In this document: piece by piece, positions 2,324 to 56,314 of the stretch | How positions within the stretch are numbered: position 1 is the first letter of the stretch | Layout of the letters: each line of letters begins with the position of its first letter | Assembly (NCBI GenBank): GCA_051294905.1 | Contig: CM119371.1 | Location: forward strand, 31,746,001-31,810,000 | Direction of reading: 5' to 3' | From: Botryllus schlosseri | Taxonomy: Eukaryota | Length of the DNA stretch: 64,000 nt | Notes under the pieces: model-generated | Seen by the model: the letters and a program-made list of their open reading frames with translations, nothing else | What the model was told of the DNA's origin: nothing | Database searches by the model: none | Translations under genes and position numbers: made by a program

Positions 2324-5300
2324 TTGCAGTGAGTCATTCCGTCACAGAAATATCTCCTCCGCATACACGTCGCCCCATAGTCACAAGAGTATTCGTCGGA
2401 ATGACATGATGAACCTGAACCAAAATACGCAAGTTGACTAACGAGCGTTTGCGCTCCCTACGACCAGCTTTGCCTTAACCCTAGGGCGGGGAAAAACAGA
2501 GTACCTGAATGATTCGATTTTGAACTCGCATTAGGCTTCGAGTCGCGTCGAGTGCGCGGGTACCATTCCTTTATGACGTCACAACAATATGAGAAATGTG
2601 GAAATTTCAAATATGTCCCTATTTTCGCGACCACGAAGAATAAAATGCCGGCATTTTGGATCTTCAAGTATTCGACAATATATTTAACTTCCACATATCC
2701 TTTTTCAATTTGAGAACTTAAAGTTCACCTAAAAACTACTCAGAAAACCAGAAAATTCATCTAACTTCATTATCACGTCACTTTCAAAAGCTACACACAA
2801 AAAAATCTGGTAGATTTACAAAGAAATTTCTGTAAATTTTACAACGAATTACCGGTCGCAGCTAATAGCAGCGTGTAGTTTGTCATTTTACATTTTGATA
2901 TGTAATATTACATTAATTTAGCTCCTAAGTCAAGTTACCAGAATTTCTTCGCAAGGTTACTGACAGTTACTCGCTACGGCATTTTACCAAGCTATTAGCA
3001 AAATTGATTAGCTTCCAAGCCCCAGCAACCAGTGGATACGTGGAAGTGCATGTCACTGTGATATCATTCTCGTTGCGATTTGACCTGATTCAACCTCGTT
3101 CGCGAGACAGGATTAGGTCACACGGAACTGGTTAACCCTAGTACCAATTTCGGTATAGCGCATAGTTGGGTGCAAGAAGCAGCTGACAATGTAGTTACAC
3201 CATAGATATACATTATATTATAAGGCTATGGCTACACGGTCGGTCTCGGCGGTTAGATTTGTTGTAACAGATAGGGCTAATGAGTTACAAAAATCAGTTT
3301 AGGATATATAATCTTATTCTTGAAATTAGAAATATCACCACAGCAGCAGGCTCAGTTGACCATTTCTTAATGGCGGACAAGGCGACCTATAATAGGTTAC
3401 CTTAAGTTGCGCGTTGCAGGTTTTTCTGAGATTCGTAGTAAACAACCAACAGTCAACTGTGACATCACAAATAGCGTCCGGTTAGGTAAGTAAGTAGGGA
3501 ACAACACGTGGAGCAATAAATATCAATATATACGAAATTAGATGCAAAAGAAAGGGACTATAGGTGTTGATAGATGTTTCTGTATGAAAAACCAACCTGG
3601 ATTGAACATTATAACGTGGACAGTAAATATTATTGGTGGCATATGTGAGCGGATGAATATCACTTATTTCAAAGTCGTCTGCGTGTCGAGCCGAGTAGCC
3701 GACTGGTCGGCCATTAATATTGAGCTTTGGGCATGCAAAGGCTGACGGTGCGAAGCTTGTGACTTGTGATTGAAGAAAGTAGAGACTTTCGTTGAAGATT
3801 CTCAGGACTGATGAATGGGATGCGCATCGTAAAAGGTACAGTAGCCTACTGTATAGTATTAGTTACCGTGAATATCTACGACTGTGCACACCACCCGGAT
3901 GACTTTGGTTTCATGATTTAAATATTTCAGTCGCCCCATTCTCAGTTCTATTTTGGGATATTAGTCGACTTGTATAATGACCTGCGACACCACATACTCT
4001 GCCGCGGAGTAGTTGAAACTGTTAGCTTGTTATTGACATTTATCGGGTCATAGCTTAGATATGTTTTCATCCACTGCTCGATATGTTTGGCTCACATGCC
4101 GCATCAAATGAGGCACGTTTTCTTTCAATACATTGATCATTAAAGTCATGAATCTCTGCTATATCATGTGAAGTGAGGAGTCGTCAACTCACAATGTACC
4201 AGTACCGGTACTTCAAAACTTGTTATATTTTTGTTAAGCCTATTTGTCTTAGTCTTTATAAGTCATGTCTAGGTTAGCAACTTGGCTTAGTATAGCGATT
4301 TACGCATGAATTATTTTTAGTGGAACTGCAAGATACTAGTCACACAGAAGGAATGAAGACGAGAAAAAGAAACAATTGGAAGTTTATCCGGCGTTGGAAT
4401 TAATTCACCTTTTCTTGGGACCACTCGTGCTATATTTGCATGCCTCCTAAACAAGAATTATACCTCCAGCAGCAATACTTTTTCATCGTGAATCATGAAT
4501 GAATATACAGTTGTCCTAATGTCGCCTTGAGAGGGTGAAGAAACTTTTGCGGTATTTTGGCATCGCGTTGCTTTGGGATAGGTATGGATGTAGGCTGAGA
4601 CGTGAATTTACAAGCTGGCATGTAATCTGATTTACAAGGACAGCATGTAGGGTTGTTGTAGGTAGGTAAGGCGGTAAAATTACAGTCTCGGTGGTAAATG
4701 TACACAGAAGAAAATGTAGATTGAATATACAAGAGGTGACTGTAACATTACAGTCTGGCATGTAAAGTTAGATTACCGGACGGTTGTAAGTTGAATTTAC
4801 ATTGAGTGACGGTAATGTTATATTACTGCCAAGTGGCTGGCCACCCTGCTTCCAGACATTTCGCGGTAAATCGAGGTAAATCTTTTTTTCAGTGTACCAT
4901 GCGGTGGAAGTCAGCTATTATGTCACGTTTCTAGTTCACGATGATAAAACATGACCCGTCAATGATTCGTGACTGAGAATTATGTTTGTACTTGGGCGAG
5001 ACCGCTCGTAAAATTACTCGAATTCTGAATCACTGGGTGATAAAATAAAAATAACTCGATTTGAGTCTGGTCCAACGTTAAAATCATAGGACTTGTGACT
5101 CAGAACGCCGTGACTTGGTACGACCACGGACACAACGAACTATCAAAGATCAAACTATTATGGGGACTAGTAATATATCAGAAGGTCGTAGCTTGCTCTG
5201 CGTGGCGTAGGAGCTATCTAATGAGGTCACTATGGAATCCATTGACATTCTGTCGCCTCCATAGTGTAGGACTATAGTTAGCTACATCGTGGTTGATATA

Positions 5301-8300
5301 TGTTCTCTTAATCTGTGTAATTATCGCCAGTGGCGAGTAAGGTAGTAGTACGCTCCACAGCTGTAAAGTCATTGGACTTTTCGTCGATTGTACATTTCCC
5401 TATTTCAGTGGTCTTAAACCGGGCTCCATGAACCCCATCGGAGTATAGAGCACCACGTCAAGGGGTACGAGATGTATTGCGAAATTAGGCTTATATGTTA
5501 TCTAGAGCTCAAGGTTATTTTGCAAAGCCACAAGAAACGTACTATTTTCTCGGCCAATATAGTCAACTGAAAAATATTCGTCACGCTACGCGCGATTTTA
5601 CGTGAATAGAGGTGTTTATTTTAATATAGGTACCATGGGAAATAGTGTTGAAAATGAATAGGGGTAAGAGGCATCATATTGAAAGTACTAGGGGTACCAT
5701 CGCTAAACACCTTAGGAAACACTGCTAATACTATGCCACAATAATTATTATATTCAAGTTGTTATTGACAAATGGTCTGCTACCAGATCAATCTTTGGGA
5801 AATTCTAAAATGTTCTCTTTAAAATGGTGGCACGTCAAATGTCCACTGCCTCCAATGTTATAACGCGTCGGGCCATGATGCACTTGTCCTCTCGCACAGT
5901 GTATGACTCATTATTTTGACAAATTATGCCCAGCACTATAACAATGTTATTAAAATATTTAGAATTCGATATTTTTCGTGCCAAGCGTGAATAGGGCGAT
6001 TATAAATTACATTTTCACGGTGTTTGTGAAATTCCAGTCTGGAACGTTCCGTCAAATAAGACCTACTTGGAAATTATACATTGAATAACCTTACTATTGA
6101 TACTGCGGCCCGCCCCACCAAAAACTCGGAAATTGGCCCGCGATCACATTTGAGTTCGAGACCCCTGGTGTATAGAGGTACCTGCAATGGATAGCCTTCG
6201 AAACTTGATTTGGCTGGAGATATTCCTTCTCAATTCAGGTTAGTGGATGTTTACTCTCTTCCGGATCCATATTAATATTAATAACTCTAAAATTGTGAGT
6301 TGTTACCTTCGCAGTATTTGACTCGGTGTATTTTCGGCAACGCTTTGCACACTCGATGTAACATGCCACTTCCTCTGCGACAGAATGATACATTGGAATT
6401 GTACTGGATGCGGGTGTCCATATATTGTTCATCCGAGTTATCCCTGAACGAATTTGTCTTTAATCGCCGATGCTCAAATTGGGTCATTGCTTTCCAGGAT
6501 TCTTGTAAGCAAACAATTACTTCCAATAAGTCATTGCTAACGTGTCGTGCGCTCAAATGCGTCATTTATCATTATATCGCATGCTCACTTGTTGACCAAC
6601 CCTGTGGATTATGATGTTTGGTGAAAAGAAAACACTCGATTATCAGTGTTCTTGGAACACTTACCGGCAATTTTTCACACCATCGCAAAAATCTCTCTCC
6701 GGTATGCAGCTCGTATTGTCGAAGCACGGTATTTCATAATCTCGGCATGAAGTTCCTGTGTTCACAAACTTGCGCTAAATGCTACGTTATATATTATAAT
6801 GATGATATCGCAGCCTTTCGCGATACATGCCGCTGACTCAAGGAGTTAAATATCGAATTCCACGAGTTTATTACCAGGTAACTTAAATCGCTATATGTTT
6901 TGCATGAGAATCTTTCACCTCGCCGACATAGCGACATAAAACTTTTTCGTGTGAAAGAAAATATTACCTTCACATATCTTGTCTTCGTATGGTAGGTGCT
7001 GTGGTATTACGCAGATTAGTCCAAAGCTTCGGCCTCTACAAAAGGTCATATTACTGCCGTATATAACGCTGGATTTCCTCAACGGAGGTTCATCAGATTT
7101 ATCCCTGTGTAAACAATTGCGAAGGGTAGACCTTTTACGATGTTCGAATAATGATGAACGCTATTGTGTCATGTAGCTGTCCCGATATGCACTCAAGTCG
7201 GGTGCAAGATTCTCGTTGGTGAAAGCTATAGACAGAATATAACTCTAAATATATGAATAAATATATAAATATAATATATATATATAAATAGTATCATTCC
7301 TTATGATATATGATGGACAAAATATCCCTACAATTTTATTTTGTAGCTCTCTCGTACTGTCATACTAGCATATTTAACTTATTTTTCAACACTCTAAATT
7401 GGTACGGGCCATTAATTAACGAATAATCTTCGAGGGTATACTATTTCACTCATAAAATGATAGCAATATGCATCATTATGCAATGATCTATATTGCTTCG
7501 CAACTGTTCTGAGATCTGATTCAAAAGCTGTAGAAATAGACTGTGAAATAAGGCCACTTGAATACGTATCGCATTTGGTAGAAACTTATCTCATTAATTG
7601 AGAACAGTCGAAATGTGACGTTTTCAACGATAACACTTACCAGCAATCAGCCTGTCCATTGCAAAATAAATGCGCCGGAATGCATTGCGATCCGTCCGAA
7701 CAAGGAAACTGATTCGGTCGACACGACCTACCTGAAATACAATGGCGATCCCAGTTGATGCAGCGTAACTTCCTTTCGAATTCAAAGAGAAATGGATTTA
7801 CGTGTCTTTGATTGATATACCTTCACTCACTTTAACCAATAGAAATAGCCTGTTGTTGCTGATAAACAGAGTGGACCAGGTTCGGCATATCGCTATAGAT
7901 TATCGACTTCAGTAGATTAGCAACTAAATATTTTCTGTGTACTGCGAATAATTCGGACATTTTGGTTCCGATCACTTTTGGAAGAATTTGTCGGAAAATC
8001 ATTCGTTCGTTTCATAGCCATGCATAAATGTAGGTGATGTGGTAAAATACTGTACTGGTGCGTAATAAAGGAATTGCAGCTGCGCTATACTGCAGTAAGT
8101 GACACTGATCGCATACAACGTACGGGATTTATACCTTTAAGTTAGTAGTAGCTACAATATTTCGAGATCAAGCGATTTAACATGGACTGTATACTGTGTA
8201 ATGGATAGGGTTGCATTTAAAACAAATATCAATTTAAAACAAGCATGTTAAAAACAAGACCCTAATTTAAAACATGTTTTTATTGATTTTTATGTTTTTT

Positions 8301-11300
8301 TTTCAAGGCATGACGTCACGGATATTTAATTGTGAAGTGATAGTGGATTGACATTGACAATTGAAAATATAGGGTAAAAATAGCTCCTCCCAAAATATAT
8401 GTACTATTGCTGTTGAACCGACCATTTTGAGGGTTCCAACCATCCCATATCGATATAGGTTGGCTAGATCGGGTGGTAATTGTCAGTAAGCTCATATAAC
8501 ATGTTTTGTGTAAAATATTTACACAATTATGACATCATTTTACAACTTAAAAAAACATAATTTCTTTTAAAACCGTTTTTTAAAACGCTGTTTAAAACAT
8601 GTTTTAACAAAGTGTTTTAAATCACCGTTTGTTTTAAATGCAACCCTAGCTATGGACAGAGTGGACTCATATTTTGGCACGGCAGAAAATTATTCATGGA
8701 GCAGCTATCATCGCCAATTGAAGGCTAAATCCACAAATAAACCATGATTCCAAGGGCCGTTATACGTTTACGTTGCAGCCTTGGTTGAAGTATGGCGTCA
8801 GGTGAAATTTGAATAACCATATGATGGTGCCGCATTTTCTTCAACAGCATAGTCATCCTGTTCAACAATATGGCGCAAAGATGCTGTGAATCTGTCACAG
8901 CCCTCTATATTAGTTCATTTCGATTAGTAGGGCCTACTGCATGGATCGCCCTTGTTTCAACATATTCCTTCATCTCGTGTTACAACGAACGGAGTTCTCG
9001 TTATATTTCGGCATATCCAAACTATAGAAATAGCGAGAATTTGTCCGGATTAAGCATCGCATCGTCCGAATCAGGCGGAGTTTTTTTCGTGAAAGTTTTG
9101 ATCGAATAAAACGTTTTCCGGGTGATACGCTACACAAAATAAGCGGAGTTCAATATAGTCGAAGTCGAAGTTGTTTCCCAATCCTATGGATTGCCACACA
9201 TCTTATATTTGCATGAGCTACTGGATTTTCAAAATACGGAACTAGAACCAGAAATACTCACTTTTAGAAACCAGCAACTAGAATTAAAACTAAAACAAAC
9301 AAACTTTAAAATCTCCTAACTAACTAACTAAAATGCAACAAAGTATATATTAAAATCCAAAGCAATTAATACAAATTAGTGAATTGCAAATTAGGTAAGC
9401 AATATTAAATAATGAATCGGAATATCAATAGGACGCGGTTTCATGTTTGATATAGGAGGGGTTTCGATTCCGATGATTCAGGTTCCGGTCTATACGCCGT
9501 TAGTAGGTCGATTTCTTCTTTACCTAAAAAATGGACGATTTGGACCTAAAAATCAAATTTTTTACATTTTTGACATTAAAAAACCTGAATTTGATAAAAT
9601 TCAGTACTCGTGTGTGTAAATTAGGTGCTTCGCACAAAATTTTGGGATAATTTTACTACTCATCTTCATGTCTGGTTGGAAATTTCTGAAGCTACGATGA
9701 ATAATGAAAACACTGAAAAAACTTTTTGACTTGAAAAGTGACACATTTCGACATGAAAAAACTTCGTCTTTACGAAATCTGGACCTAAGGAATTCCAGTA
9801 GTTACATCACTCATCATGGTGGAAATAAATAAAATTTGTTGCAGTACAACGAAAGATACTTTCCTACATCCTCGTGTAGAAACTGTTTGTCCTTAGCCAT
9901 GAATGGAGAAAGAACGTTCAACAGCAACAGTTGATGGCTGGGAACACTAAAGTTTTGCGTACACTGCTGGTGACACGCCGTGTTGCTTGCTATTGATCTT
10001 TGTGCTATTGATCATTATTTCGTGTTACCTCCTTTATTTGTGTACTGCTCAATGAACGTGGTGCAAAAGGCCGTCAATTTTTCTGTTTAATAAACAACAA
10101 CAACCGCGTTGCTTCATTCTGATAATGTTGTCTACATCAAAATAGTTCATTATGCGCTTCTTGATATGAAAACCAATCCCCACGAAGTCTTGTTTCAGTT
10201 GGAATATTGCGGTACGTCAAGGATAACGCCATGTCCACCAATTCGTTTCATTTTACCGTTTATGGTTTACAATAAGACAATGGTAAACCTATAACGTAGG
10301 CTACAAGATGTCGAATGTTTACAGTGCAATCATCTACTATACAAACGAATTACAGGTTGCAAAAAGATATTGAATTTGTAAACAATTTTGACAATATTTT
10401 GTCCTGACGCTACAATTTTAAAAAGGATTTTGACTAATTGTGACATGTAAAAAAATCGCTCTAGTCATTAGTGATTGATCTGAGGAAGCAATTGATACAC
10501 CAACATAACACAGCACAACACTGGACCTAGGACTAGATATAATCACTTTTTAAGATTAGCTACTAGAACTAGATCTTGAGCTACTCATAAAAACGGCAGT
10601 TTGTTGACCGTCAACTGCAAAACCGTTTTAGACTCGCTATGCCAATTTTGGTGGAAACATTAGCGTTATAACAGCCGCACCACATTTGTTGGCGTGTTAC
10701 GCACTTATCCCCCATGTAATCATATTTCCAAGGTATCCGTCGGGATTTACGGTAATTACATTAACGGTGTTCTTAGCTTACACTTCCGACAAACACCATT
10801 AAAAATAGCTTTGCGCGACGACTCACAGAACAACGACCGGGGAATTACTTGCGTACTGTCGTCATCAGCTCTGCAGTCATCTTACCAGAACAAAACGTAT
10901 CAAAATGTGGCACGAGGTGCGGCTGTAAAACGCATACGGATGATTTTCCGCTCTTCCCGACGCATATCGTAGCAGTGTGATCGTCTCTTGCGTGATAGCT
11001 CTTTACGGAGGGCTCGTCCGATCCATCACTGCATATATTCAGATATAGTAATACAGCTTACATTCATAATATACCATTACTAGCTCAAAGAATTGTTCGC
11101 GTGCACTTATCAAGAGCTACAAGGAGGCTAAGGGAAATACAACGAAGTTGAATTCAAAACCAAATAGCGAAATATTGGATTATGATCAGGCCTGTTTATT
11201 TTTGGATTTCTCCAAAAATAACAAAAATAGCTTAGTTTTGGATGTTTTCAAATTTTATTTTTGGAGAATCTCCAAAAATAAGAAATGAATGTGTTTTTAG

Positions 11301-44300: not shown

Positions 44301-47300
44301 TATCCGAAACAGCGTCTGAAATAGCATCAGTATCCTATCCGACTGCCATAAAATTGTGGAAAATCCGGTTCAAATAATCCACATGATGCCCATCACTGGT
44401 GTATTTTACGCTCATGTAAAGATAACTTGCATGGCGTCAACCGCACTCCGCAGATGATCGGGAATGTATATTAGATTCATGCAAACGATATTTCGCTTCG
44501 TGAATACTTTATAGCAGTGGTTCTCTACCTTTTTCACCTCGCGGACCGGTAAAATTCCAAAAAATATTCGGCGGACCGGTGAAGTTTCAAAAATTGAAAT
44601 CAACTCAAAACGTGAAGTATGCAACTGTTTTATGCAAGTATATGATGCTAGAGAGACACATTTTGAGGGGTTTGATCGTAAATAAAGATGGTTAAAGAAG
44701 TTTATTATGGCATTCATCTGATTATACTGTAGTGGGTCTGCTGAGTCGAGGTAAAATTGCCCTGCCAAAATAAACGTGCTGGAGCCGAGAGTCTTTTACA
44801 GTCTTTCGCGCTGTCAGGATGTACTTCAAAACTTCAACATTGTGGCATAATGTGGCCTTAGTCGTCACTGTACAATATTATATCACTTCACTGAAATATG
44901 TAAGGTTGGAATATGCAATTTTACGTCACGTAACGTCATAGGTACACGATCGCGTTCACACAGAACTTTTCAAAATGGTTCGCGTTCACACGAACCTGAA
45001 CCTATCAGAGGTTCATACGATCCCTACTATGAATACATGCGCGGCACGAAAACACCTGACTACAGCTATACCTGACCATCCACAGAATTAGAGCCGATCA
45101 TCAGCCTAATTGCCCAAAATCGGCAGTCTTGGGCCCCACAAAGCAATAAACCAAACTTTTAGCTAGGGGGCATCACCCCCAGACCCCACAGTTGGTTGGT
45201 TGTTTCCGCCAGGACTTGCGAACGCATTCAATTTACTGAGCATAGGCAGATAGTTTTCTATAGGCAATTCATGGCTGAATCAGTCAATAAAATTGTTGAT
45301 TGCATATATATTGCTGTAAATTTGTAGACTATCATAATTATCAGACTTTCCGCTAGAGTTGATTAAGGTGTCGTGTTGGAAAATTTAGGGCAGGTAATAG
45401 ATAATATAATTAAACATATTCGGGTGGGTCTGTTGGAATAATTACTTTATTGCATGTCAATATTTCGTCACCTTACTGTCTGTTATTTTGTGACTAGATA
45501 TTGAAATCACCCAAGCGTACTAAACTAAAGTACGCACACTATTCCCAATTAGTGTTTCTTCATCGGCAAATAATTTTACTCTGGGCTTTTTCATTTGTGC
45601 TGTGGAGCACCGATTGCCAGGACAGTGAAATTAGGTACCAGCCATTATGGAGCCTATGGACAAATATACATATATATATATCGAAGTTATCGGTCAATAA
45701 AGGGCAGTCATTTTCGGTCAAGGTTATCCCACCGGTGAGTTTATCGCACACTTTGTGGATTCCTATGTTAGCCTAAACTTCATTACGTGATGGTGCGTCC
45801 CTTCACAAAAGGAATGAAGCGAAAACGAATGATCGCGGAAACTGCGCGGATTTGTGAGTCAGCTCGTATTAGTCCTTGCCGCTCATATTTCGTAAAATGA
45901 CACAGGTTGAACTTCAAGTCAAATCGAACATGCTCCCAGACCTATACTATGTTACTTCACGACGTTCTGAATGAGTTTAAAATTTGATATTTGATATTTA
46001 TTTTATTTTATCAACGGACAAGCCTTCAACATATTCCATCTTGAAATTTTGTTATAAAATTGCAAAACACCTCGCGGACCGGCGGTTGAGAACCACTGCT
46101 TCATAGGACTTTTGCATTGTCTATCACAGTTTTGGTACAGGCTCTACCGTACACTGTACGGTACGTGTACAGTGAAAAAGTTCGTAGAAAGAAGGTGCAA
46201 ATGGAAAGAAGTCCTTCTCTGGCGCGCCTAAGAAGACTTCACCAAGAACAAAAATGAGTCCAAAGCGCGAAGTAACATCATATCCATCAATACGCACACT
46301 TGAATTAAAAAGCAAGCATACACATCACTGTACAGTGCGTTTTTATTCTGAAAATATCATAGGCAAAAAAGACAATGCGTGCGTTTTATATATTTTAGCG
46401 TCGTTACTCGTTAGCACGACAATGCGCAGTCCCTAAAATAGTTACCTCAAGAATATAGTCATTACTAGGATTGCATTTAAAAGAAACAGTTTGTTTAAAA
46501 CATGTTTCAAACAATTGAATATTCGTGACGTGATGGCTTAAAAAGAAACTTTAAAAAAGAACAATAAAAAACATGTTTTAAATTAGGACCTTGTTTGAAA
46601 CATGTTTGTTTTAAATTGATTTTTGTTTTAAATGCAACTCTAGTCATTACCATCGCATAGTACATCCCGATATGATTCGAGACTTGCTGGCATTACGCAT
46701 ATCCAGGTTGTCCTTCGAGACCAATGCTCCTCGCCATAGAAATGGGCCGCACCCCTGCCATGACAGAAAGTAGTATCGGCGTCGTAGCTCATATTGTTGT
46801 ACCGTAAAAGTGGCTCTTTGGATTGATCCCTAGGTAGAATTGAGCATAAATTTACCACAAATCCAAGAGTAAAACTATTGTCGATGTATGTCACTGGTAG
46901 TGAGTGTATTTTTTTACATCGCCGTTCACCATAATAACAGCTTTTCATCAAGTATTTGTTTCAGTCGGAATTGCAATTGCAAATTAGGTTTCCGTTACAT
47001 TGCATAAGATACCTCGCATATCTCGTTACGGCAATAAAAGATTGCAATAATTTAGCACATATATGTAAATAGGAGGATGTCTCAATATATTCAAGAGCAA
47101 AATTATAGCAAACTAAAATATCAAATTAGACATATTAGGAATACAAGTATTTGTAATAATGCATACAAAAATCACAAAAGTCATACCGGCATGTATTCCA
47201 TCCGTTGCAAAATTGAACTATGTTAATGCATCCACTTCCGTCTCGACAGGCAATTGTATTTACTGGACATTTGCTTTCTGAAATACATTTTCCATGAAAT

Positions 47301-50300
47301 CGCAAAGCTCCTGTTGGCGCGAATTGTAATACATTCCTGATATCGCAATATATATTCATTAGCCATTAGATAACACAGCAGCACGAAGCAGTCAGGTATA
47401 ACCTACACATCGAAAAGAAATTAAATACACTCGTAAAGCAGGTCAGAATATTCAACATCCATAAAAAATAATTGAATTGGATTTGGATATTGTTAAATTA
47501 CGCAACTTTCAACAAGGTATTTTAGGAATAGTTTGGCGTGATGGATCGCAGGCAATAAATCGCTAACTTTGGCATCCATTGTTCAGATACTGCAACATGA
47601 CCATGTCCATTGTCCAAGTGAGGCAAACCATTTCGTTATCAAGAGCTTAAATTAGTGGTTCCCCAGACATTTTTCCACGGTAGTGGCAGACTATAAAAAT
47701 CATGAAACTGTTTCGCCATACTTAATGAAGAAGAACGGTTGACTTACAAAAATTATTTTCTCGTGTTGATGCGATGACTGTGTTTATAGGATGAACAGGT
47801 GCGATGGAAACGAGGTAACCTTGTTAACAAATATACCAGTATTTTCCGTCAATTCCATGCAATATTTATAATTACGAATTTTAATTTGAACCAAAAGAGC
47901 AGTTGTTACATAACCATAACGATGTAAGGTGCAATGATCACCGAATATGATTTAGTCCAATTTATGGTCGATGCACCCTTAGACACTCGATGTAATGTCT
48001 TGTTTCGATATGGCAGCTTCATCAAAATACTTTTTAGTGATAGTTTGACATAGAGGATTATGTAAACGGATATCTGAATAAAACCCGTGAATAAGTGGAA
48101 CATTATTTATAAGTCGAAATAGAGGTACGGTCTTCCTCGTCGAGTTTGTGCGTTATCCGACAAACATTCAAATAGATATGAATTCAATGCAGGTAATACG
48201 ATTGTATTATAATCTAAACACTTACGTTCGCAAAATTCGAGTTTGTCCGGTATAAATGTCGTCGTTATCGCGCAGGCCCTGTCGTGTTTGCGACAAATAG
48301 CCGAGTCGGAGTGGTTTGTAACGCTTTCGTCGCGATAAATCTCGTCGGACCCGTCCCTGAAATGGATTGGGTCCTAAGACAGCAATTATAATTGAATGGC
48401 GTCGTGCATGCTAATCTTCGTTTCACAATTATCAATTTCTAATCAAGTAACAGTAATATTTTGCTACCAACGGGTATAAGATTCACTCCTCGTGGAATGT
48501 ATATTATGGTCTAGTATTAGAGCTATGTGGGGTTGCATTTAAAATAAATTGTAACTCAAAAAAATTAAAACATGTTTGAAGGGGACCAGTAATCCAATCG
48601 ATTTTTTTTTTCTGGTAGGAAATATTAACATTGTATCTCTGGAGTCACCTCATGGCCTTATTTCACTCAAACAATAACTAAAAACTGCAAAATTTCAATT
48701 TTATTTTCCTTTGATAATGAGGGGGGGGTGTTTTTTGTCAAGTTCCAACCAAAAAATCGCATATTTTGTCTGATAACTCTATAAATCATATGGTTTGACC
48801 GGTATAAAATATCTATCTATATTATCTCCCGATACAAATATGTGAGTTTGTTGTCAGTTGTCATTCAAGCATTCCGGCGCTCATTCTTATCATTGCAGTG
48901 GCAATACTTGTTCATTGACTTTTTACTTTGCAAATGTTTGTAAATGTTTTTCTCAATTATAAAATTTTGCTACGTCGCATCACGGTAAACCAAAAAGGCG
49001 TTAGATCGGGAAAAAACTTCACAATTTCGAGATTTTGCATTCCCCGTGTCGGTGTATTTTCTGTCCTTCGAATCCACTTTATGCCACAACATGCAGAGTG
49101 GAACCCAATTTTTTTTTTGTATGTAGCATAGCGACATCCAACGATTGTGAAATTTTCATGGTGATTGGGGTAGCCATACGGAATTTGGGCTTTTGGATTG
49201 CTAGTCTCCTTGAACAGTGTTTTAAAAAATGCCTTCAATGAAACAATTTTTTTTTTGATTCCGTCGTTCTATATTGTTGCCATAATTGTGTAAATACATT
49301 CGAAAAAACAGGTGGCATGAGCCTAAGGACGATTGCACCCGGTGTAGTTTACGTATACGATATAGAGTGGCTCTTTGGGACACAGAACAGTAATATACAT
49401 TTTAACGATATATTCATGGAAAAAATATATTTGAACCAGAAGCTTTTCGAGCTGATTTCAAAAACATGCATCTAGCTACATTGTCTAAAACTAATTATGG
49501 CGTCATAGAAACAAACAACATGAAATACAGCCAAACCGCGAGCGCAGCTATTGACCAATTTTAGATTGATTAAAAATTCCTTCTGCTGACACAAACGCGG
49601 TGGGTTTTAATATATTTTTATCATATTTTGATATTTTTGAATATAGAGTTAATGCAACACTCTAAATCATCGCTATGGAGATATGATAGGCATAATGAGC
49701 TCTATAATATTATATCGTTTCAAACATTGATATTTTTGAAAACAACATATGATATTTAATCATTGCATATTTCTTCTTTAATTTTAACGTAATTGTCATT
49801 CGCCAAGTCAGGTTTTATCATCATGAGCTACGACGTGATGATGAATAACCAACAACTATATTTTATTATCATGACTAAGACGTATGTTATGTCACACACA
49901 AGTAATATTTCTAAGAGATACGCATGCAGTGGTATGTTTCCTATGTCACGTCTCGTGTATGTGCAAAACTTACGGACAGTGTTTGATACCATCACAAAAG
50001 TACGTCCTTGGTATGCATTTGGAGCCGTCCGCACAGGGAAATTCCAGAACTTCGCATATTGATCCTGCAGCGACAAAATACAATAATCAGAAGTGGTCAG
50101 TATCAAAGTACGTTTATTATGTCTATTTGTTCATTTACTCAAGTGATTACGTTTGTAGATAACATACCCTTCTACTTAACCATTTTCAGACAAAACAGCA
50201 AACGTATTACACTTTGTAATTTTATAAGTAAGACGTAGTTTTTAATAAGTTTGCATTATTTTCCCGAGTAAAATTTTGGTAGGAAATACGTGAAATAGTC

Positions 50301-53300
50301 CTTCCCCGTATCGCGGTATATGACTTTATTTTTTAAATGGTAACTATTTTTATACCTTCTCTTGAACTAGTTCTTTCGTGCCTTGGATATACTTTATACT
50401 TGCAATTGAACAGTAAATCGCTGCAATACGTTTCATTCTACTAGACTAGCCCGTTGACTATACTTTCACCACCTTTGACAATATCAGGAATCAGAGCGCG
50501 ACATCATCATCGCAATGCTGTTTAAGAACGGATATCGCGTAGCATTGTGGATATGTTACCAATAGCTACCCGATAAACCTTCCGTTATCAAACTCGTATA
50601 TCTTTACACGTCATTATGATCCCATAATCCCGTTACATATTCCGTGAATAATCTCTGACACGTCATGATCCTATTGGATTCATGCAAGTACGATATGACC
50701 GCTTGGTAACAAACGCATACTCGGTAATACCTTCGCAAAGTTCTTCCTGGCGTGCATACAGCTGTAGTGGCAGTATGCAGAGTCGAGGACTGTACGTATC
50801 CTTTCCTCTGCGGCACACAGTTTCGTTGGAATATTCGCTTGCGTTGTTTGTTCGGTACGGTTCGTCTGATCCATCCCTGGATTGATCAAACTAGTGTCAT
50901 ATGTCATTGAGAATATGCAGCCATCATAACTTTATAGCAGAGGTGGTCAAAGTAGTCACCGTCGCTACTCAAGTAGAAGTAGAAGTAACGCCGGAATTTC
51001 TACTCAAGTAGAAGTAGGCGTTATGGTTCACCAAGTAAGTAAGTAAGTAGGTATTCTACGCTTATCTTTGCCTAAAAAACTGAAAATTGTCAAGTAGAAG
51101 TAGAAGTAGTCTCAAATCATAACTACTTAAAAAGTAGTGTGAGTAGGAAAAATCTACTTCAAGTACTTCAAAAAGTAGAAGTACTTCGTTACTGACCACC
51201 TCTGCTTTATAGAGCCACACCGACATATTTTGAAGAGCTTCTTATAGGTAGAGGACTTCAAGATACAATTAACTATTATATTCATATTGAAATAAGCCTG
51301 AACATTTTCGACTGACACTGGTCCGGGGTATAGCCTACTTGTCCATTTGAAGAACTTTATGGAGGTACCGGCGATTACTCGTGACGAGGTTCATCCGAAA
51401 ATATTCTGGTTTATTTTAATATGAAGATATTACTCCGATTTGGCAGACCTTTTCTGTTGATTTAGCACAATTAACACAATTTAGCATATGTGAACTAGAA
51501 CTTGTAATTAGAAAGATTAATTTGAAAAATATATCTTATGTAAATTTCACTTATTTACAGTAAAATACAGCATATTAAGAAACTATTATAATTGCATGAA
51601 CTTGTAGTTTGTTAAACAAGGATTTTCGGCATTTCTCAAAAGAAGCAAACTCCTAAAGTCCTTATAAATCAATCCAACTGTAATGAAGACACTCCCACCT
51701 CTCATTTATATCATGTTTTTAAGGTTTAACACGTCACAAGATAGGCCGATGCATCAACTGTGACAGGCCGAAAACTACATCTTTATTGAGACAGATATTC
51801 TCCCGGTTTAAATATTAGCATATAATGACATTTGATATTAGAAATACATGAATAATTTGATGAAAACGATAATTATATTATTAGTGAATAATTGTTCGCT
51901 ACTACTGTATTCATGCTGATAAAGGCAAATTTGCAATTTCAGATGAGAACCCTGCATAATGCATTAACCATACGTACATGCAATTCTTCGATCCGTCGCA
52001 AAATTGTAGTATTGAAACACAATTACTGCCATCCGAGCACGCAAATTCCATGCTTCCGCATGATAAGCCTGAATAAAACGTTGACAAAGTTCACCGTTTT
52101 AAAACTAAAATTTATTAAGGAACTGAGTCTTACCTTCAGTTTTCGAAATATATGTTACTAATCCAGTTACAATATGGAAACATACCAATTCTTTCATGTT
52201 TTCATGTTTCATTTCACATATATATGGAATTGTGTACGTAAAGCCGCATCGCTTCCAAAGCACGATCAAAAAGTTACTGAATTCAATTGATTGCGTGTTA
52301 CCTATAGACACCTAATATTCGAACTGTTGCCTGTAACCTCCACTATAGCTATACAGTCACGACCATCACCGAAATTCGTGGTATGATCCGGTTGGAATCA
52401 TGGGATAGCGCCAACTTACGATATTCCGTGCGTTTCTTCTAGCAGATTGATTCGCCAAACATGTGTAATTCGTTTTTTCTACTAGCCGGTGGTTCACTAA
52501 TTCATGTTTCTACGTGATACAACGAGGGTACAACTTGAATTCGTACCAGCTGTTTGAAGACTTTAGCGAATATCTAATAGGCACAAGTGGGTACACCCGT
52601 ATACCCGAAAACAGTTCCTAACAATGTTCGTAAGTGAAGTATCAATACAATTTATTATATTTCATACGGGAAATCTTGAAACAAAAACATTACCAGCAAT
52701 GTTATGTGCGATCGATGAAGAATCATACGTCAGTAACGTCTGCCGTTTTACATTTCCGCCTTGGATAATCCTATAAGGAAGTAATTTTTGCTTCCGAATC
52801 AGGCAAATCGTGCTCAAGCGCCAAACTCATAGCCAAGTAGGCGCTCACTCAGTTTACAGTATATGACGTCTTATAGCGTCGACGTAATCGATTTGTGCAA
52901 GCTACACTGTTGGCATATCGCATGCAAATAGTAATGATATACCTGACAAATCTATAGCATTGGTTCCCGAACTATGAGTCGCGGCCACAATTGGGTTCGC
53001 GGCCATCACCTTTGGGCCAATTATACGTTCTGCTATCTTTCTCTTCAAATTTCAATCGTAATGATATTGTCATTGTGACATTATTAATAATTGACCTGTA
53101 TTGAACTAATCCCTTACTACCTAGCCTAAATCATTAACAACTGTACAATAGGGCTCTTCAAAAAATGACTTTTTTCTCAAATCGTACTGGCTACTTGATA
53201 AAATTGTTAGGTTACCTCATTTAAGCCTACACACAAAATTCCAATTCCAGCCAGTAACCGCTTTGCTACAGGAGAAGAAAGTTTCTATTTATTATTTAAA

Positions 53301-56300
53301 AATATATAATAAAAAATTTGAAAATTTTCTGTTTATCCCATGAAAGTGTTAGGCTGTCTATAGAAACTATGCTCACCAAATTTGGTTCAATTCCAACCAG
53401 TGGAAGCGGAGTTATTGCAGTTTGATGGATTTGAATAAAATAGTATTTACGGTGACCGATTCTTTGTTTATTTATTATAGTTCTGCTCACCGTAAATACT
53501 ATTTTATTCAAATCCAAATTTTTCGACGGCAATAACTCCGCTTCCACTGGTTGGAATTGAACCAAATTTGGTGAACATAGTTTCTATAGACAGCCTAACA
53601 CTTTCATGGGGTGAGCAGAAAATTTTCGAATTATTCATCATTTATTTTTATATAGTAAATGGAAACTTTCTACTCGTGTAGCAAAGCGGTTACTGGCTGG
53701 AATTGAACCAAATTTTGTCTGTAGGCTTAACTTAGGTAACCTAACGATTTTATCAAGTAGCCAGTACGATTTGAGAAAAAAAGTCATTTTTGAAGAGCCC
53801 TACTGTACAAGTTTTTCAGGCGGCTGCAAGACCACACAAGACATTGGTCACGTAATATGTGTAAAAGATATGCGAGTGTGCTTCGACGTCTCTTTGTCTT
53901 AGTAGAATTGTACTATATCAAATTATCAGCTTTATATAAGAGTGGCACAAACGATGCGGACCATGCATTATTTCTCAGCGATTGTCTCAGTGCATTATAA
54001 TGCATAGCTATCAAATGATTGTCTGTAATTTAGCTATAGTCGGAACCTTCCTCAAACCACCTAATTTTTGATACCCCAAACCCCGTTGTGCAGAAACCAC
54101 CACTAAATCATGTTATAAATAAATCGAAACGCAACTTCGCTCATTGTTCTCAACGAAATTTTAGTTGACCTTGACTATGGGCCTGCTGGCCAGTACTCAG
54201 TACAGCTATTGTAGCCTGTAATATAGGTGTGCAACCCTCAGGCGACAAGGAATAAGGATTCTGTGCAACTGCAAAGAAGTATCGATTCCGAATGGCTTGG
54301 TTCTCGCGGAATGAGTTTTTTAGTCTAAATTAGTGTGTTATATGTGAGAAATTCCGATCCTTTGAATTTCGAAAAAGTGTGCTGAGGACCAAATATTTTA
54401 ATAGCCTATATGTCATCAATGTATGCTCCAATAAAGCAATTACTAACCACTAGAGGTAGTCAATACCGTAGTACTTCCAGCATTTCCTCCTCGCCACCTC
54501 ATCCGCGTAAGCGGTGTCTTACGAAAATTCTAGAAGTGGGCCTGCTATAAGTCGGCAGTTACGGGTAAGATGAGGAATATAGGCCTGGTGTAAATGACCA
54601 TAGTATAGTCGACAAACCCCATGAATACTATAAAAACAAAACAATCTTCTAGCATTTTATAGTACTCAAGTGTTTTTGTCTGCTTGCAAAGAGGTTATGT
54701 TTAAACTATCCTAACGTTTCTACAATATCTCGCTCTTTAGTAAGTGTCATAAAGCATTCTCTATCTACAGCAGTGGTTCCCAAACGGTGGAGAATTCCCC
54801 ACTGGTGGTGAATTCAATGGTTTCTGGTGGGGAATAGACGCATTTGTTCAAAATTATATATAGGACAGCCTACATATTCACGAAACACATGCGCAATTAC
54901 CGTTACCAGTTACCTGCTCTGGAATGTATGTAACGAAAATTATATTGCGTGTTGTTCACGAAACCTCATTTCAACTCTGGAGGGCCAATCATGGCGTCAC
55001 AAACGCATCCAGCACGACTGGTTTGACGTGAAATAACGCTTTCGCGAAATTTTCAGCGTTACTGGTGTCGGTTCACAATACGTTTTAAGTTGCAGTTATA
55101 GGCGATTGTCTTTCGTACTGGTGTGGTTGTGTGTCTTGTGTAGTCAAACCAGCAAATAGCTGCTTTGTGATGACAAAATTGCTGCGTAGTGGAGAACAGG
55201 ACCGTAACTGCCGCACCCCAAACCCCCCAATTGGAGGGGGCAAGCTCGAAGGGGCCCAAATGAATTTCGTGAATTAACATAAATTAAAGTATCTTTTGAA
55301 ATTTATGCCACTTTGTCAAACAAATTTCGCACTGGGAGCGCGATTTATTATTGCCAATTATCTAATTATCGGGTACCCTCCCCACGAAAATACGTAGAAT
55401 TTATAGAAATGGAGACTTCGGCTTCGGCTATTACTGCGCCACGACGCACCAAGGCATATGAAGGTATAGGCCACGTAACATGCTACTCCGAGAAGTGTGC
55501 CAGAACGATCAGCAGCGACAAGACCTTAGTCTATAAGGAATGCCCTTGTCGTGAGCTCGTGACCCACAACCTCGATATATTTACAATATACGTATATGTT
55601 TAATTGGCTAAATGGCTGGCGTCGAATGATCTTGTCCTGGCGATATGAGCCCCACAGAACAAATGCCATCCAGCAGGGAAAAATTATTTGCCAGTAAGGG
55701 AATACAAATTTGAAATCGTGTGTGACTTTTAGTTTTGGTGATTTCCATATCTTTTGACATAGCAGATATAGGAGGTCACGAAATAGCATAGCAACACACC
55801 TCGTTCAGCTCTACCGGTAAATCTGATTACGGCAGCAGAGAGGGGATAAAAAATTGATAGCAAAATATATGCAATTCGCGATCATATTGGCTGATTCAAT
55901 CACGAATTATATAATTTTTTCGCGCTTCGCGCGTTTAGTTGAGGTAGGGCGACACACTAAACAGTAGACCCAATGTAGCTGATAACTTGTAGGGGAAAAG
56001 CGTACAGGTTCAGCGGGGCTAAGGGGGTTCTTGGGGCCCAATACCAACGTTTTTTTTTTGGCGAGGCTAACAAAGTGCTGTTACGGTCCTGGTGGGGAAT
56101 AAAGGCTCGGAATAAATCTGAAGTGAAGAATGAAGTCAAAAAATGTAAGAATTACTGATCTAGAGGCATACGTCTTGACGTCATGTACAAAAGTAATATC
56201 TTCTGCGGGCGATACGTAGAGCTTACCATTACTTAAATTCACGACGCCGCAAAGACTTCTTGCAGTCACGATAACGAATAACATTGAAAGACGTGTTGCG

Positions 56301-56314
56301 TCCATACGTGTCAT
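2324..56314 (-). CDS. Multi-exon secreted or cell-surface protein with at least 9 tandem LDL-receptor class A (LDLa)-like modules; 3' end lies beyond the left edge of the window
   Basis: Hand-spliced GT-AG exons. Signal exon 56314-56227 (MTRMDATRLSMLFVIVTARSLCGVVNLSN). 91-bp A exons: 52068-51978, 50064-49974, 47277-47187, 43754-43664, 41916-41826, 19765-19675, 7731-7641, 6755-6665, 2414-2324 (e.g. GSSCKSDEFPCADGSECVLGWLFCDGKEDCK). Alternating B exons: 50876-50731, 48356-48226, 46829-46651, 42513-42350, 23260-23109, 11028-10886, 7104-6968, 6443-6307 (begin DGSDE or a variant). All phases are compatible (1-2, 2-1) with no stops, about 698 codons inside the window. Confidence 0.88.
2794..4894. 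mobile_element. Second, older CACTA/EnSpm-like non-autonomous element
   Basis: Ends CACACAAAAAAA...TTTTTTTCAGTG, TA on both flanks, subterminal GTAAAT/TTTAC motifs. TIRs are imperfect and internal coding is decayed. Confidence 0.55.
8207..8648. mobile_element. hAT-type MITE (related copy at about 46466-46642)
   Basis: TAGGGTTGCATTTAAAAC...GTTTTAAATGCAACCCTA with AAAACATGTTTT subterminal motifs. Confidence 0.8.
9700..9980. repeat. Dispersed repeat with an inverted copy at about 40835-41040
   Basis: GAATTCCAGTAGTTACATCA...GAACGTTCAACAGCA matches the reverse complement of 40860-41020. Confidence 0.7.
11391..11700 (-). pseudogene. C-terminal (hAT dimerisation-like) remnant of the same transposase
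   Basis: Reads SMFPTSATVEADFSKINWEKGLYRASPTDFSLEGILQAKDFVTKVLES-stop; upstream LSELIDKH and IEDQFQSM..Y lie in shifted frames. Confidence 0.7.
12438..16178 (-). CDS. Element-encoded protein: two C2H2 zinc fingers fused to a SAMD3-like/EnSpm accessory region; 7 exons, about 511 aa
   Basis: Exons 16178-15619, 15358-15250, 14514-14317, 14246-14040, 13982-13853, 13780-13710 and 12698-12438 splice GT-AG in frame (1536 nt, no internal stop). Motifs CPTECC..HLRRFH, CKIDCC..HVYRMH, WKKKL..IFNERRK, MKVTFKRRR..I..ILVEYPLL, FTHALALILSIHWVFNIQF. Confidence 0.75.
12828..13617. mobile_element. hAT-type MITE in the last intron of the ZnF/SAMD3-like gene
   Basis: CAGGGGT... start, degenerate right end, perfect 8-bp TSD ACTTATAC. 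Confidence 0.65.
14547..15213. mobile_element. Charlie-type hAT MITE with a second MITE (about 14754-15035) nested inside
   Basis: CAGGGGTGGGCAAAC...TTTCCCATCCCTG with perfect TSD GTGTAGCA; inner element CAGTGGTTCTCAAAC...GTTTGAGAACCACTG. Confidence 0.85.
16620..17480. repeat. Complex tandem-repeat block near the right end of the EnSpm-like element
   Basis: Many copies of GACACTCGGACATCATGTCTG, GGCATGTCTGG and GTTCGGACTGCGTTG. Confidence 0.9.
17672..18391 (-). pseudogene. Frameshifted central part of the hAT-type transposase
   Basis: Fragments in different frames: TTRVEEAA..IVLVWCGRDLVTQAEY, FVHTMMGLHGYLQRQQDLIQE, LPCLPHQVAQ; several frameshifts and stops; visibly more GC-rich than the flanks. 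Confidence 0.6.
19121..19529. mobile_element. hAT-type MITE (related copy at about 42725-43075)
   Basis: TAGGGTTACCAT.CGTCCTCC...ATGGTAACCC ends. Confidence 0.7.
19849..20250. mobile_element. hAT-type MITE
   Basis: TAGGGCAAGTTTT...AAAACTTGTCCTA; perfect TSD GTTATCAG; GCAACTT subterminal repeats. Confidence 0.8.
20343..22284. mobile_element. Charlie-type hAT element with a related element nested inside (20701-21990)
   Basis: CAGTGGTTCTCAA...TTGAGAACCACTG ends; imperfect TSDs CTGCAGAG/CTGTAGAT (outer) and GGCTATAA/GACTATAA (inner). Segment about 20830-21160 recurs at about 22555-22880. Confidence 0.75.
23288..26090. mobile_element. hAT-type non-autonomous element with (AAGTC)n subterminal repeats, hosting the foldback and a MITE (about 23575-23912)
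   Basis: Ends CAGTGCTGG...CCAATACTG; perfect 8-bp TSD ATTCATAT. Confidence 0.8.
23924..25516. mobile_element. Foldback element with long TIRs, P/Galileo-like
   Basis: Ends CATAGTGTC...GACACTATG; 7-bp TSD ATGCTAC; inverted arms about 23924-24468 and 25152-25516; centre holds about 3 tandem units of about 243 bp. Confidence 0.85.
26247..26625 (-). pseudogene. Penelope-like GIY-YIG endonuclease remnant
   Basis: IYCQIDCGYVGTTSKRLQE, then after a frameshift NQHVP...SAIGNHL..NPICA..Y...F....RS.FHL...ES..I....P.LC.QK. Confidence 0.8.
27241..35174 (+). CDS. Harbinger accessory MADF (Myb/SANT-like) DNA-binding protein with a BESS-like C-terminus
   Basis: Exons about 27241-27409 (FNEELIESVRDYPVLYDSTH...KDNIWIKISEKL), 33748-33910 (ENCKKRWKQLRNRF...YQSMSFL), 33992-34298 and 34941-35174 (EYAHFGSMVAKMLEKLP) are phase-compatible. 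The start codon was not resolved. Confidence 0.8.
28462..29350. mobile_element. Foldback-type non-autonomous DNA element in the MADF intron
   Basis: Inverted tandem GAACTCGGCACTTGGTGAATTCGGCC repeats at both ends, a second inverted pair (about 28640-28695 and 29117-29172), and an 8-bp TSD TTTGAAGT. Confidence 0.78.
29460..33704. mobile_element. Non-autonomous DNA element with GGCCGGCC subterminal arrays, containing the LINE fragment
   Basis: Imperfect TIR (TCTCAGC.TTCCCGTGGCCACT.ACTGGCCAC), perfect 8-bp TSD GTATAATG, and multiple TGGCCGGCCA copies at each end. Confidence 0.8.
31776..32770 (+). mobile_element. 5'-truncated non-LTR retrotransposon (LINE): RT C-terminal region plus 3' UTR
   Basis: 258-aa ORF 31776-32552 with W...N.L.IN..KS, KYLGVLLDSNMSWKSHI, LHYGILCWG, HKYNTR and Y.GP..WNS.P motifs; no YADD core. 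Confidence 0.85.
34328..34882. mobile_element. hAT-type MITE in the last MADF intron
   Basis: CAGGGCTTTGGAG...CTCCAGAGCCCTG with GCTCCG subterminal repeats; TSD CTTATAGC/CTTATAGT. Confidence 0.78.
35906..37334 (-). CDS. Harbinger (HARBI1/ALP1-like) DDE transposase, 3 exons, about 429 aa, apparently intact
   Basis: Exons 37334-37207, 37123-36905 and 36848-35906 join in frame. Motifs EWVRP..R...GEY, FRMDFNTF, LRHLATG, GAIDGKH, VGDAAF, FNYRLSRARRVIENAFG, ACCLHNF. Confidence 0.9.
38663..39490 (-). pseudogene. Penelope-like element reverse transcriptase remnant
   Basis: Frameshifted pieces SFDISSLFTNVPLQETI, LANIFVGYNE, YRRYVDDTF, LNSLHPALQFTIEKE, HRALMICS...ILFDNGYP. Confidence 0.88.
41340..41795. 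mobile_element. hAT-type MITE (a second copy starting about 54770 is interrupted at 55197)
   Basis: CAGTGCTTCCCAGCC...GGCTGGAAACCACTG; body closely matches 54770-55190. Confidence 0.75.
44515..46098. mobile_element. Charlie-type hAT element with internal fragments of other repeats
   Basis: CAGTGGTTCTC...TTGAGAACCACTG; TSD CTTTATAG/CTTCATAG. Confidence 0.75.
50938..51204. mobile_element. hAT-type MITE with AAGTAG repeats
   Basis: CAGAGGTGGTCA...TGACCACCTCTG; perfect TSD CTTTATAG. Confidence 0.85.
53149..53802. mobile_element. Almost fully palindromic (foldback) MITE
   Basis: TAGGGCTCTTCAAAAA...TTTTTGAAGAGCCCTA; arms pair to a centre near 53475; perfect TSD CTGTACAA. Confidence 0.88.
55197..56091. 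mobile_element. hAT-type non-autonomous element
   Basis: CAGGACCGTAAC...GTTACGGTCCTG; TSD GTGGAGAA/GTGGGGAA; inverted relative of the element ending at 1360. Confidence 0.8.

Follow-up and report, generated by a model that had tools for sequence, protein, structure and literature searches.

The window analysed here, a 64,000-nucleotide stretch of Botryllus schlosseri DNA, carries on its minus strand, from position 52068 down to 2324, nine exons of one type (A) and eight of another (B) in strict alternation. Each A exon is exactly 91 nt long and runs from phase 1 to phase 2, and the B exons measure 131-179 nt (146, 131, 179, 164, 152, 143, 137 and 137 from B1 to B8) and run from phase 2 to phase 1; all have AG/GT ends, and the introns of the array range from 212 to 18,565 nt.

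In the direction of transcription, the array opens with A1 (51978-52068; PF00057, 1.2e-05), which covers Cys1-Cys5 of an LDLa module, and B1 (50731-50876), which contains DGSDE, a linker and three further cysteines. They are followed by A2 (49974-50064; PF00057, 2.2e-06) and B2 (48226-48356), A3 (47187-47277; PF00057, 0.0043, under the curated cut-off) and B3 (46651-46829; DQSKE at the DGSDE position and the longest variable loop), and A4 (43664-43754; PF00057, 6.5e-07) and B4 (42350-42513). A5 (41826-41916; PF00057, 2.5e-06) is separated from B5 (23109-23260) by the 18,565-nt intron, which is rich in transposon fragments. The remaining exons are A6 (19675-19765; PF00057, 1.3e-08) and B6 (10886-11028; the sole B exon without an N-glycosylation sequon), A7 (7641-7731; PF00057, 1.1e-08) and B7 (6968-7104; DKSDE), A8 (6665-6755; PF00057, 0.0074, under the curated cut-off) and B8 (6307-6443; DNSDE), and A9 (2324-2414; PF00057, 9.9e-05), the last exon inside the window.

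A six-frame scan of the window found LDLa-type motifs on the minus strand only, where the first-pass annotation had placed them. Profile scans in all six frames returned exactly nine A segments (E<=1.1e-14) and eight B segments (E<=6.6e-18), the next-best matches having E values of 0.13 and 0.69. The A cysteine motif occurs nine times in the window and in none of 20 base shuffles; as a chance control, an AG-91 nt-GT frame occurs at 0.3% of minus-strand positions. When the 17 exons and a candidate first coding exon (56314-56227) were joined in silico, 2096 nt with 698 codons, no stop and 70 cysteines were obtained. The boundaries, phases, AG/GT ends and 698 stop-free codons confirm the earlier description of nine 91-bp exons alternating with eight of 131-179 bp. 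Judged from the sequence, the array is almost certainly one real gene, and its 18 exons are predicted to be joined by splicing.

The candidate first coding exon (56227-56314, minus strand, 29 codons plus 1 nt, donor GTAAGC) is signal-peptide-like. Upstream of A1, 78 ATG-to-GT phase-1 exons are possible, six of them with a strong donor. The chosen exon is the most hydrophobic of these six; some weak-donor candidates among the 78 are more hydrophobic. The signal peptide proposed earlier is therefore the best of the strong-donor candidates but not the most hydrophobic of all. At the other end, no B-type acceptor was found in 1-2323, to the left of A9, indicating that the gene runs on to the left, out of the window. 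Inside the window, neither a 7TM exon nor any other C-terminal exon was found, and the 698 residues encoded there contain no LRR.

Halves of a kringle domain were observed on two plus-strand exons at about 60270-60380 and 62462-62586, the second matching Pfam Kringle (5.8e-13). This neighbouring gene runs from about 60270 on the plus strand, heading away from the LDLa gene, and fits a start of the LDLa gene at ~56.3 kb.

Cysteine anatomy of the repeat unit

All nine A exons match Pfam PF00057 (Ldl_recept_a) over model positions 2-28 of 37, six of them above the curated cut-off, which bears out their earlier assignment to LDLa Cys1-Cys5. The best PDB matches of the A exons were LDLa modules of LRP4, LRP2, VLDLR, enteropeptidase and RXFP1/2, and an ESM Atlas search with A5 returned ordinary LDLa clusters only. 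A complete unit of one A and one B exon has 74-90 residues and eight cysteines, and the spacings from Cys1 to Cys5 are invariant (7, 6, 7, 6).

In a canonical LDLa module, disulfides join Cys1 to Cys3, Cys2 to Cys5 and Cys4 to Cys6. The sixth cysteine, expected a few residues past SDE, is absent from all eight units; here 15-16 residues separate the SDE Glu from the next cysteine, as the first reading of the sequence had reported. In all 38 control modules from six ordinary LDLa proteins, Cys6 came 3 or 5 positions after E, and none of 42 CxDxSDE motifs lacked a cysteine within 6 residues. The unit shares with canonical LDLa (PF00057; LDLR, LRP2, LRP4, VLDLR, RXFP1/2) the Cys1-Cys5 spacing, F-x-C, C-[DN]-G and D-x-S-D-E, but differs from its ~40 residues and six cysteines in length and cysteine number, in the absence of Cys6, and in a calcium site that is only partly kept. 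At the positions that we take, from LDLR structures, to be the four acidic calcium-site positions, all four residues are acidic in one of the eight units (unit 5); the terminal D-E is present in seven, and unit 3 has lost most of the acidic residues. The LDLa module is described, in the accessible part of PMC10074552, as held by three disulfides and as having an acidic calcium site to which basic residues of the ligand bind as well.

The three cysteines of the B half are termed Ca, Cb and Cc. In the window units, Ca lies 16-17 positions after the SDE Glu, the Ca-Cb distance is 7-22, the Cb-Cc distance is 12-14, and Cc stands 5 positions ahead of the next Cys1. The motif C[VI][LMI]P, described earlier as typical of B exons, is present in most of them, but B2 and B8 deviate; likewise the sequon said to be usual there is found in seven of the eight, with B6 as the exception. 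The Ca-Cb loop carries a net positive charge in all eight units and is, in most of them, the least conserved part relative to the nearest database exon.

No Pfam family was matched by any of 19 B exons (eight from the window and 11 from databases, described below), and a PDB sequence search with B exons gave no match. A profile-profile comparison of B with A (hhalign) gave a probability of 0.4%, that is, no similarity, and with B3 no ESM Atlas match reached 0.9. Modelled by AlphaFold on its own, B5 (51 residues; pLDDT 73, pTM 0.38) shows a predicted beta-hairpin (21-27/30-36) that holds Ca and Cb; the hairpin of an LDLa module holds Cys2 and Cys3. With the isolated 51-residue B5 model, Foldseek found no match at E<=0.001 and the VIA fold search returned one row (Z 2.1, rmsd 2.6, 33 aligned). 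A two-chain prediction of A5 and B5 with calcium, run without alignments, scored 0.03. As to spacing, LDLa Cys3-Cys5 is 13-14 in 38 of 38 canonical modules, and the SDE-to-Ca distance of 16-17 compares with 12-18 from SDE to the next Cys2 in 10 adjacent canonical pairs.

Relatives and age of the unit

When the B profile was compared with 1.84 billion representatives, 14 matches were obtained, of which 11 are B-type exons and three are unrelated repeat proteins (P0008, P0011 and P0012) that were left out of the B alignment. The 11 exons lie on short unspliced contigs, where the reading frame continues into the intron; the seven that were looked up are Logan or ENA entries. Their presence on other contigs indicates that the module is part of a gene family present in other samples. 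In the resulting 19-row alignment, no row departs from D1, E5 or any of the three cysteines. Cb-Cc measures 14 in 17 rows, Ca-Cb spans 7-28, and the linker holds a sequon in 15; one database exon is identical to B6 at 35 of 48 positions.

Spliced relatives were sought with weak searches: the B profile against longer proteins gave none among 2314 candidates; the A profile gave 6 of 642, all unrelated LDLa proteins (the four named ones are from flatworms) and none with a B module; and the 19-row B profile gave 4 of 7249, every one already in the query. No spliced or named full-length protein with the A+B repeat was found in these profile searches. The search with the B extension that the first-pass annotation had proposed thus yielded 11 B-type exons and no Pfam or PDB family, but no spliced full-length protein. 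A DNA pattern that fits four of the eight window B exons hit 65 metagenome loci, none of which carries a B exon. Six of these loci (L062, L008, L024, L040, L058 and L059) hold ordinary LDLa-like exons (best E 7.4e-05); in L062, DGSDE comes right after a cysteine-x context with the next cysteine 4 positions on, which is the canonical arrangement and not the B type.

A closer counterpart was found in Ciona intestinalis, which has 14 LRR-less LDLRR-GPCRs with an RXFP-like 7TM domain and 1-10 LDLa repeats (Kamesh, Aradhyam and Manoj 2008, PMC2396169). According to the accessible part of that paper, their ESTs come mostly from blood and haemocytes, most of their repeats are termed classical, and large proteins or lipoproteins are suggested, as speculation, to be their ligands. 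Inspection by eye, without an E-value, of the models in supplement 1 revealed one similar segment in each of seven of the 14 (ci0100137355, 142353, 144713, 145358, 149830, 150116 and 151225). In six of the seven segments, an 8-residue stretch free of cysteine separates D-x-[ST]-D-E from F/L-x-C, the F/L-x ahead of Ca being a feature shared with LDLa Cys2. A loop and C-[VI]-L-[PA]-Q come after it, with the third cysteine 14 positions on in five of the seven (145358 and 144713 differ). Three of the seven continue after the third cysteine with E-D-[GK]-S-D-x-C, resembling the module ending C-x-D-x-S-D-E-C of the same proteins. The LDLa ahead of the segment in ci0100137355 has all of Cys1-Cys5, which makes a complete 8-cysteine unit. 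As far as these published models go, the 8-cysteine variant is therefore not without precedent, since Ciona carries a similar segment in single copy. The SDE-to-Ca distance in the Ciona segments is 9, below the canonical value, so that the 16-17 of the window units may agree with canonical spacing by coincidence. No mention of an 8-cysteine segment was found in the examined text of PMC2396169, and no description of the unit or of its amplification in the literature searched, most subscription journals being outside reach.

By eye, cysteines seem to be missing from repeats of ci0100141547 and ci0100141745, such as Cys4 together with Cys6; paired cysteine loss seems common among the Ciona LDLRR-GPCR repeats in the part of the material seen.

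The copies in the window are old. Pairwise identity at codon positions 1, 2 and 3 is 0.56, 0.65 and 0.39 for the A exons and 0.55, 0.69 and 0.43 for the B blocks; this pattern, with the third position most diverged, is that of purifying selection on old duplicates, and the exon copies are near saturation. Self-BLAST of the window gave 64 self-hits, none touching an exon, and the flanking introns of the copies are without similarity. The tandem duplication of an exon pair that had been proposed as the origin of the gene is supported by these identities and by the dissimilar introns, as an old event. Mantel tests gave r=0.22 (p=0.20) for A(i) against B(i) and r=0.43 (p=0.038, uncorrected for two tests) for B(i) against A(i+1), a weak hint that B+A was the duplicated cassette. 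A recent duplication of the exon pair was ruled out, as there is no intron-level similarity around the exons.

A candidate receptor ectodomain and its alternatives

The B half is likely to be a worn second LDLa module, in which Ca, Cb and Cc would correspond to Cys2, Cys3 and Cys5. The Cb-Cc spacing at the LDLa Cys3-Cys5 value, the LDLa-type tail of the Ciona segments and the predicted hairpin with Ca and Cb are consistent with this; the hhalign probability and the lack of Pfam or PDB matches speak against it, and the hairpin fits a Ca-Cb bond equally well.

The main alternative is a single LDLa with an insertion, in which Cys4 would pair with either Ca or Cc as a displaced Cys6 and the remaining cysteines of B would close a glycosylated loop. 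We regard this as doubtful. It agrees with the lack of profile similarity between B and A, and in the B5 model Ca is set opposite Cb in the hairpin, which would allow a Ca-Cb bond with Cc as Cys6; moreover, the next Cys1 follows Cc after 4 residues, comparable with the canonical Cys6-Cys1 linker. Against it stand the Cb-Cc distance, which takes the LDLa Cys3-Cys5 value in 17 of the 19 exons and in five of the seven Ciona segments, and, in the Ciona models seen, the F/L-x before Ca and the LDLa-like tail after Cc in three of the seven. Because of the Ciona segments, three with an LDLa-type tail, a worn LDLa is the more likely origin of B. Of the extended LDLa with a glycosylated loop that had been proposed at first, the LDLa-derived 8-cysteine unit with a sequon was retained, but its inserted loop with an extra disulfide became the weaker reading in view of the spacing and of the Ciona tail. 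The identity of the receptor may be the same whether B is an insertion or a second LDLa.

For the whole array, we put at slightly better than even the chance that the exons encode the ectodomain of an ascidian receptor of the LDLRR-GPCR family in which a fused 8-cysteine double module has been amplified. A 7TM C-terminus beyond the left end of the window is fairly probable; as no C-terminal exon lies within the window, the link to GPCRs rests on resemblance. LDLa-like repeats at the N-terminus behind a signal peptide, a trait of LDLRR-GPCRs, are present if the predicted signal exon is right. Compared by eye with the Ciona LDLRR-GPCR models, the Botryllus gene is alike in its tandem LDLa-like ectodomain, in an LDLa without Cys6 followed by three cysteines, in C[VI]L[PA]Q, in a Cb-Cc distance of 14 and in that no LRR was seen. 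It differs in having at least 8.5 copies with a linker of 15-16 residues and a sequon, against one copy with an 8-residue linker in Ciona, in its longer basic loop, in a tail after Cc that is cut at the exon end, and in that a 7TM is not among the exons seen. Snail GRL101 and vertebrate RXFP1/RXFP2 are alike in carrying N-terminal LDLa on a relaxin-receptor-type GPCR, provided that the predicted C-terminus is right, but they have canonical modules and, according to PMC2396169, LRRs between LDLa and 7TM, in contrast to 698 Botryllus residues without LRR. The LRR-less LDLRR-GPCRs therefore appear more likely than GRL101 to be the nearer family, so that the GRL101-type GPCR ectodomain first suggested remains probable as a receptor ectodomain but not in its type.

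As the origin of the double module, two adjacent LDLa modules may have decayed in a complementary way, the first losing Cys6 and the second losing Cys1, Cys4, Cys6 and its calcium cage. The bonds kept would be Cys1-Cys3 and Cys2-Cys5 in the first half and Ca-Cc in the second. Canonical pairing would leave Cys4 of the first half and Cys3 (Cb) of the second orphaned, and a new Cys4-Cb bridge between them could fuse the halves and lock them into one 8-cysteine domain. The exon pair would then have been copied at least nine times by old duplications in this lineage, while the linker lengthened and gained its sequon and the loop at the hairpin tip grew into a long, basic and variable one. Strung together, the units would make a glycosylated chain, stiffened in part by calcium. 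Its acidic LDLa cages and the variable loops at the hairpin tips could bind a large ligand outside the cell, and a 7TM domain encoded to the left of the window would pass on the signal. The exon phases are such that each A exon could be spliced in frame to every B exon downstream of it. A bolder extension, which we consider improbable, is that alternative splicing makes chimeric modules and varies the array, and that arrays of fused, disulfide-swapped double-LDLa modules in an orphan ascidian GPCR family, each with a conserved calcium-type half and a second half whose basic hairpin loop is free to vary, act as a splice-diversified innate-recognition surface coupled to G protein.

If the fused double-LDLa reading is right, the gene would hold an unannotated 8-cysteine domain of which Pfam detects half, and neighbouring LDLa modules would be able to fuse through complementary cysteine loss and then multiply as an exon pair. 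The LDLRR-GPCR family and the LDLa building blocks are already known, and a similar unit occurs once in the Ciona models seen. What would be gained is a way into the ascidian LDLRR-GPCRs, orphan receptors that one paper was found to describe (PMC2396169), with the variable basic loop as a concrete candidate surface.

The receptor assignment competes with a secreted or single-pass protein (matrix, tunic, adhesive, lectin-like or protease-associated) that has borrowed the module from an LDLRR-GPCR ectodomain and has no 7TM. This possibility is rated a shade lower than the insertion: the repeats alone are visible, with the C-terminus outside the window, and many non-GPCR proteins carry LDLa arrays, but the segment was met only in LDLRR-GPCRs, in a biased sample given that the supplement of PMC2396169 lists GPCRs only. 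A recent pseudogene, or exons of several genes or transcripts (for example split at the 18.6-kb intron), is very unlikely in spite of the many transposon fragments in the introns and the coincidence of the B3 donor with the start of a dispersed repeat, because none of the 18 exons contains a stop and all have canonical sites and fitting phases, the A-B alternation holds across the 18.6-kb intron, which contains no further A or B exon, and the third codon positions are the most diverged.

Probable mobile elements in the window

The B3 splice donor falls on the opening bases of a dispersed AT-rich repeat (46511-46650, minus strand), which is 83.6% identical over 140 nt to a copy in a different intron (8198-8333, plus strand); the element may have supplied the donor or may have landed on it. 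In the 18.6-kb intron, an ORF encoding a DDE_Tnp_4 (Harbinger-type) transposase (E 1e-28) was observed at 35906-37200 on the minus strand with a 99-aa ORF adjoining it, and a weak match to RVT_1 (E 0.0011) marks another, separate fragment at 38663-39284 on the minus strand. Two related ORF-bearing fragments on opposite strands (32037-32771 and 61482-62198; 74.6% identity over 744 nt) look like retroelement ends; a Pfam search of the 32037-32771 fragment gave no match. The first intron contains a MITE-like inverted repeat of 668 nt (53142-53809, 86.9% self-complementary), and another long inverted pair is found at 23924-25516. In the A6-B6 intron, a 254-aa ORF (15438-16202, minus strand) with a weak C2H2 zinc-finger match (E 0.0038) adjoins a degenerate tandem repeat (16624-17439), and this ORF probably belongs to a mobile element.
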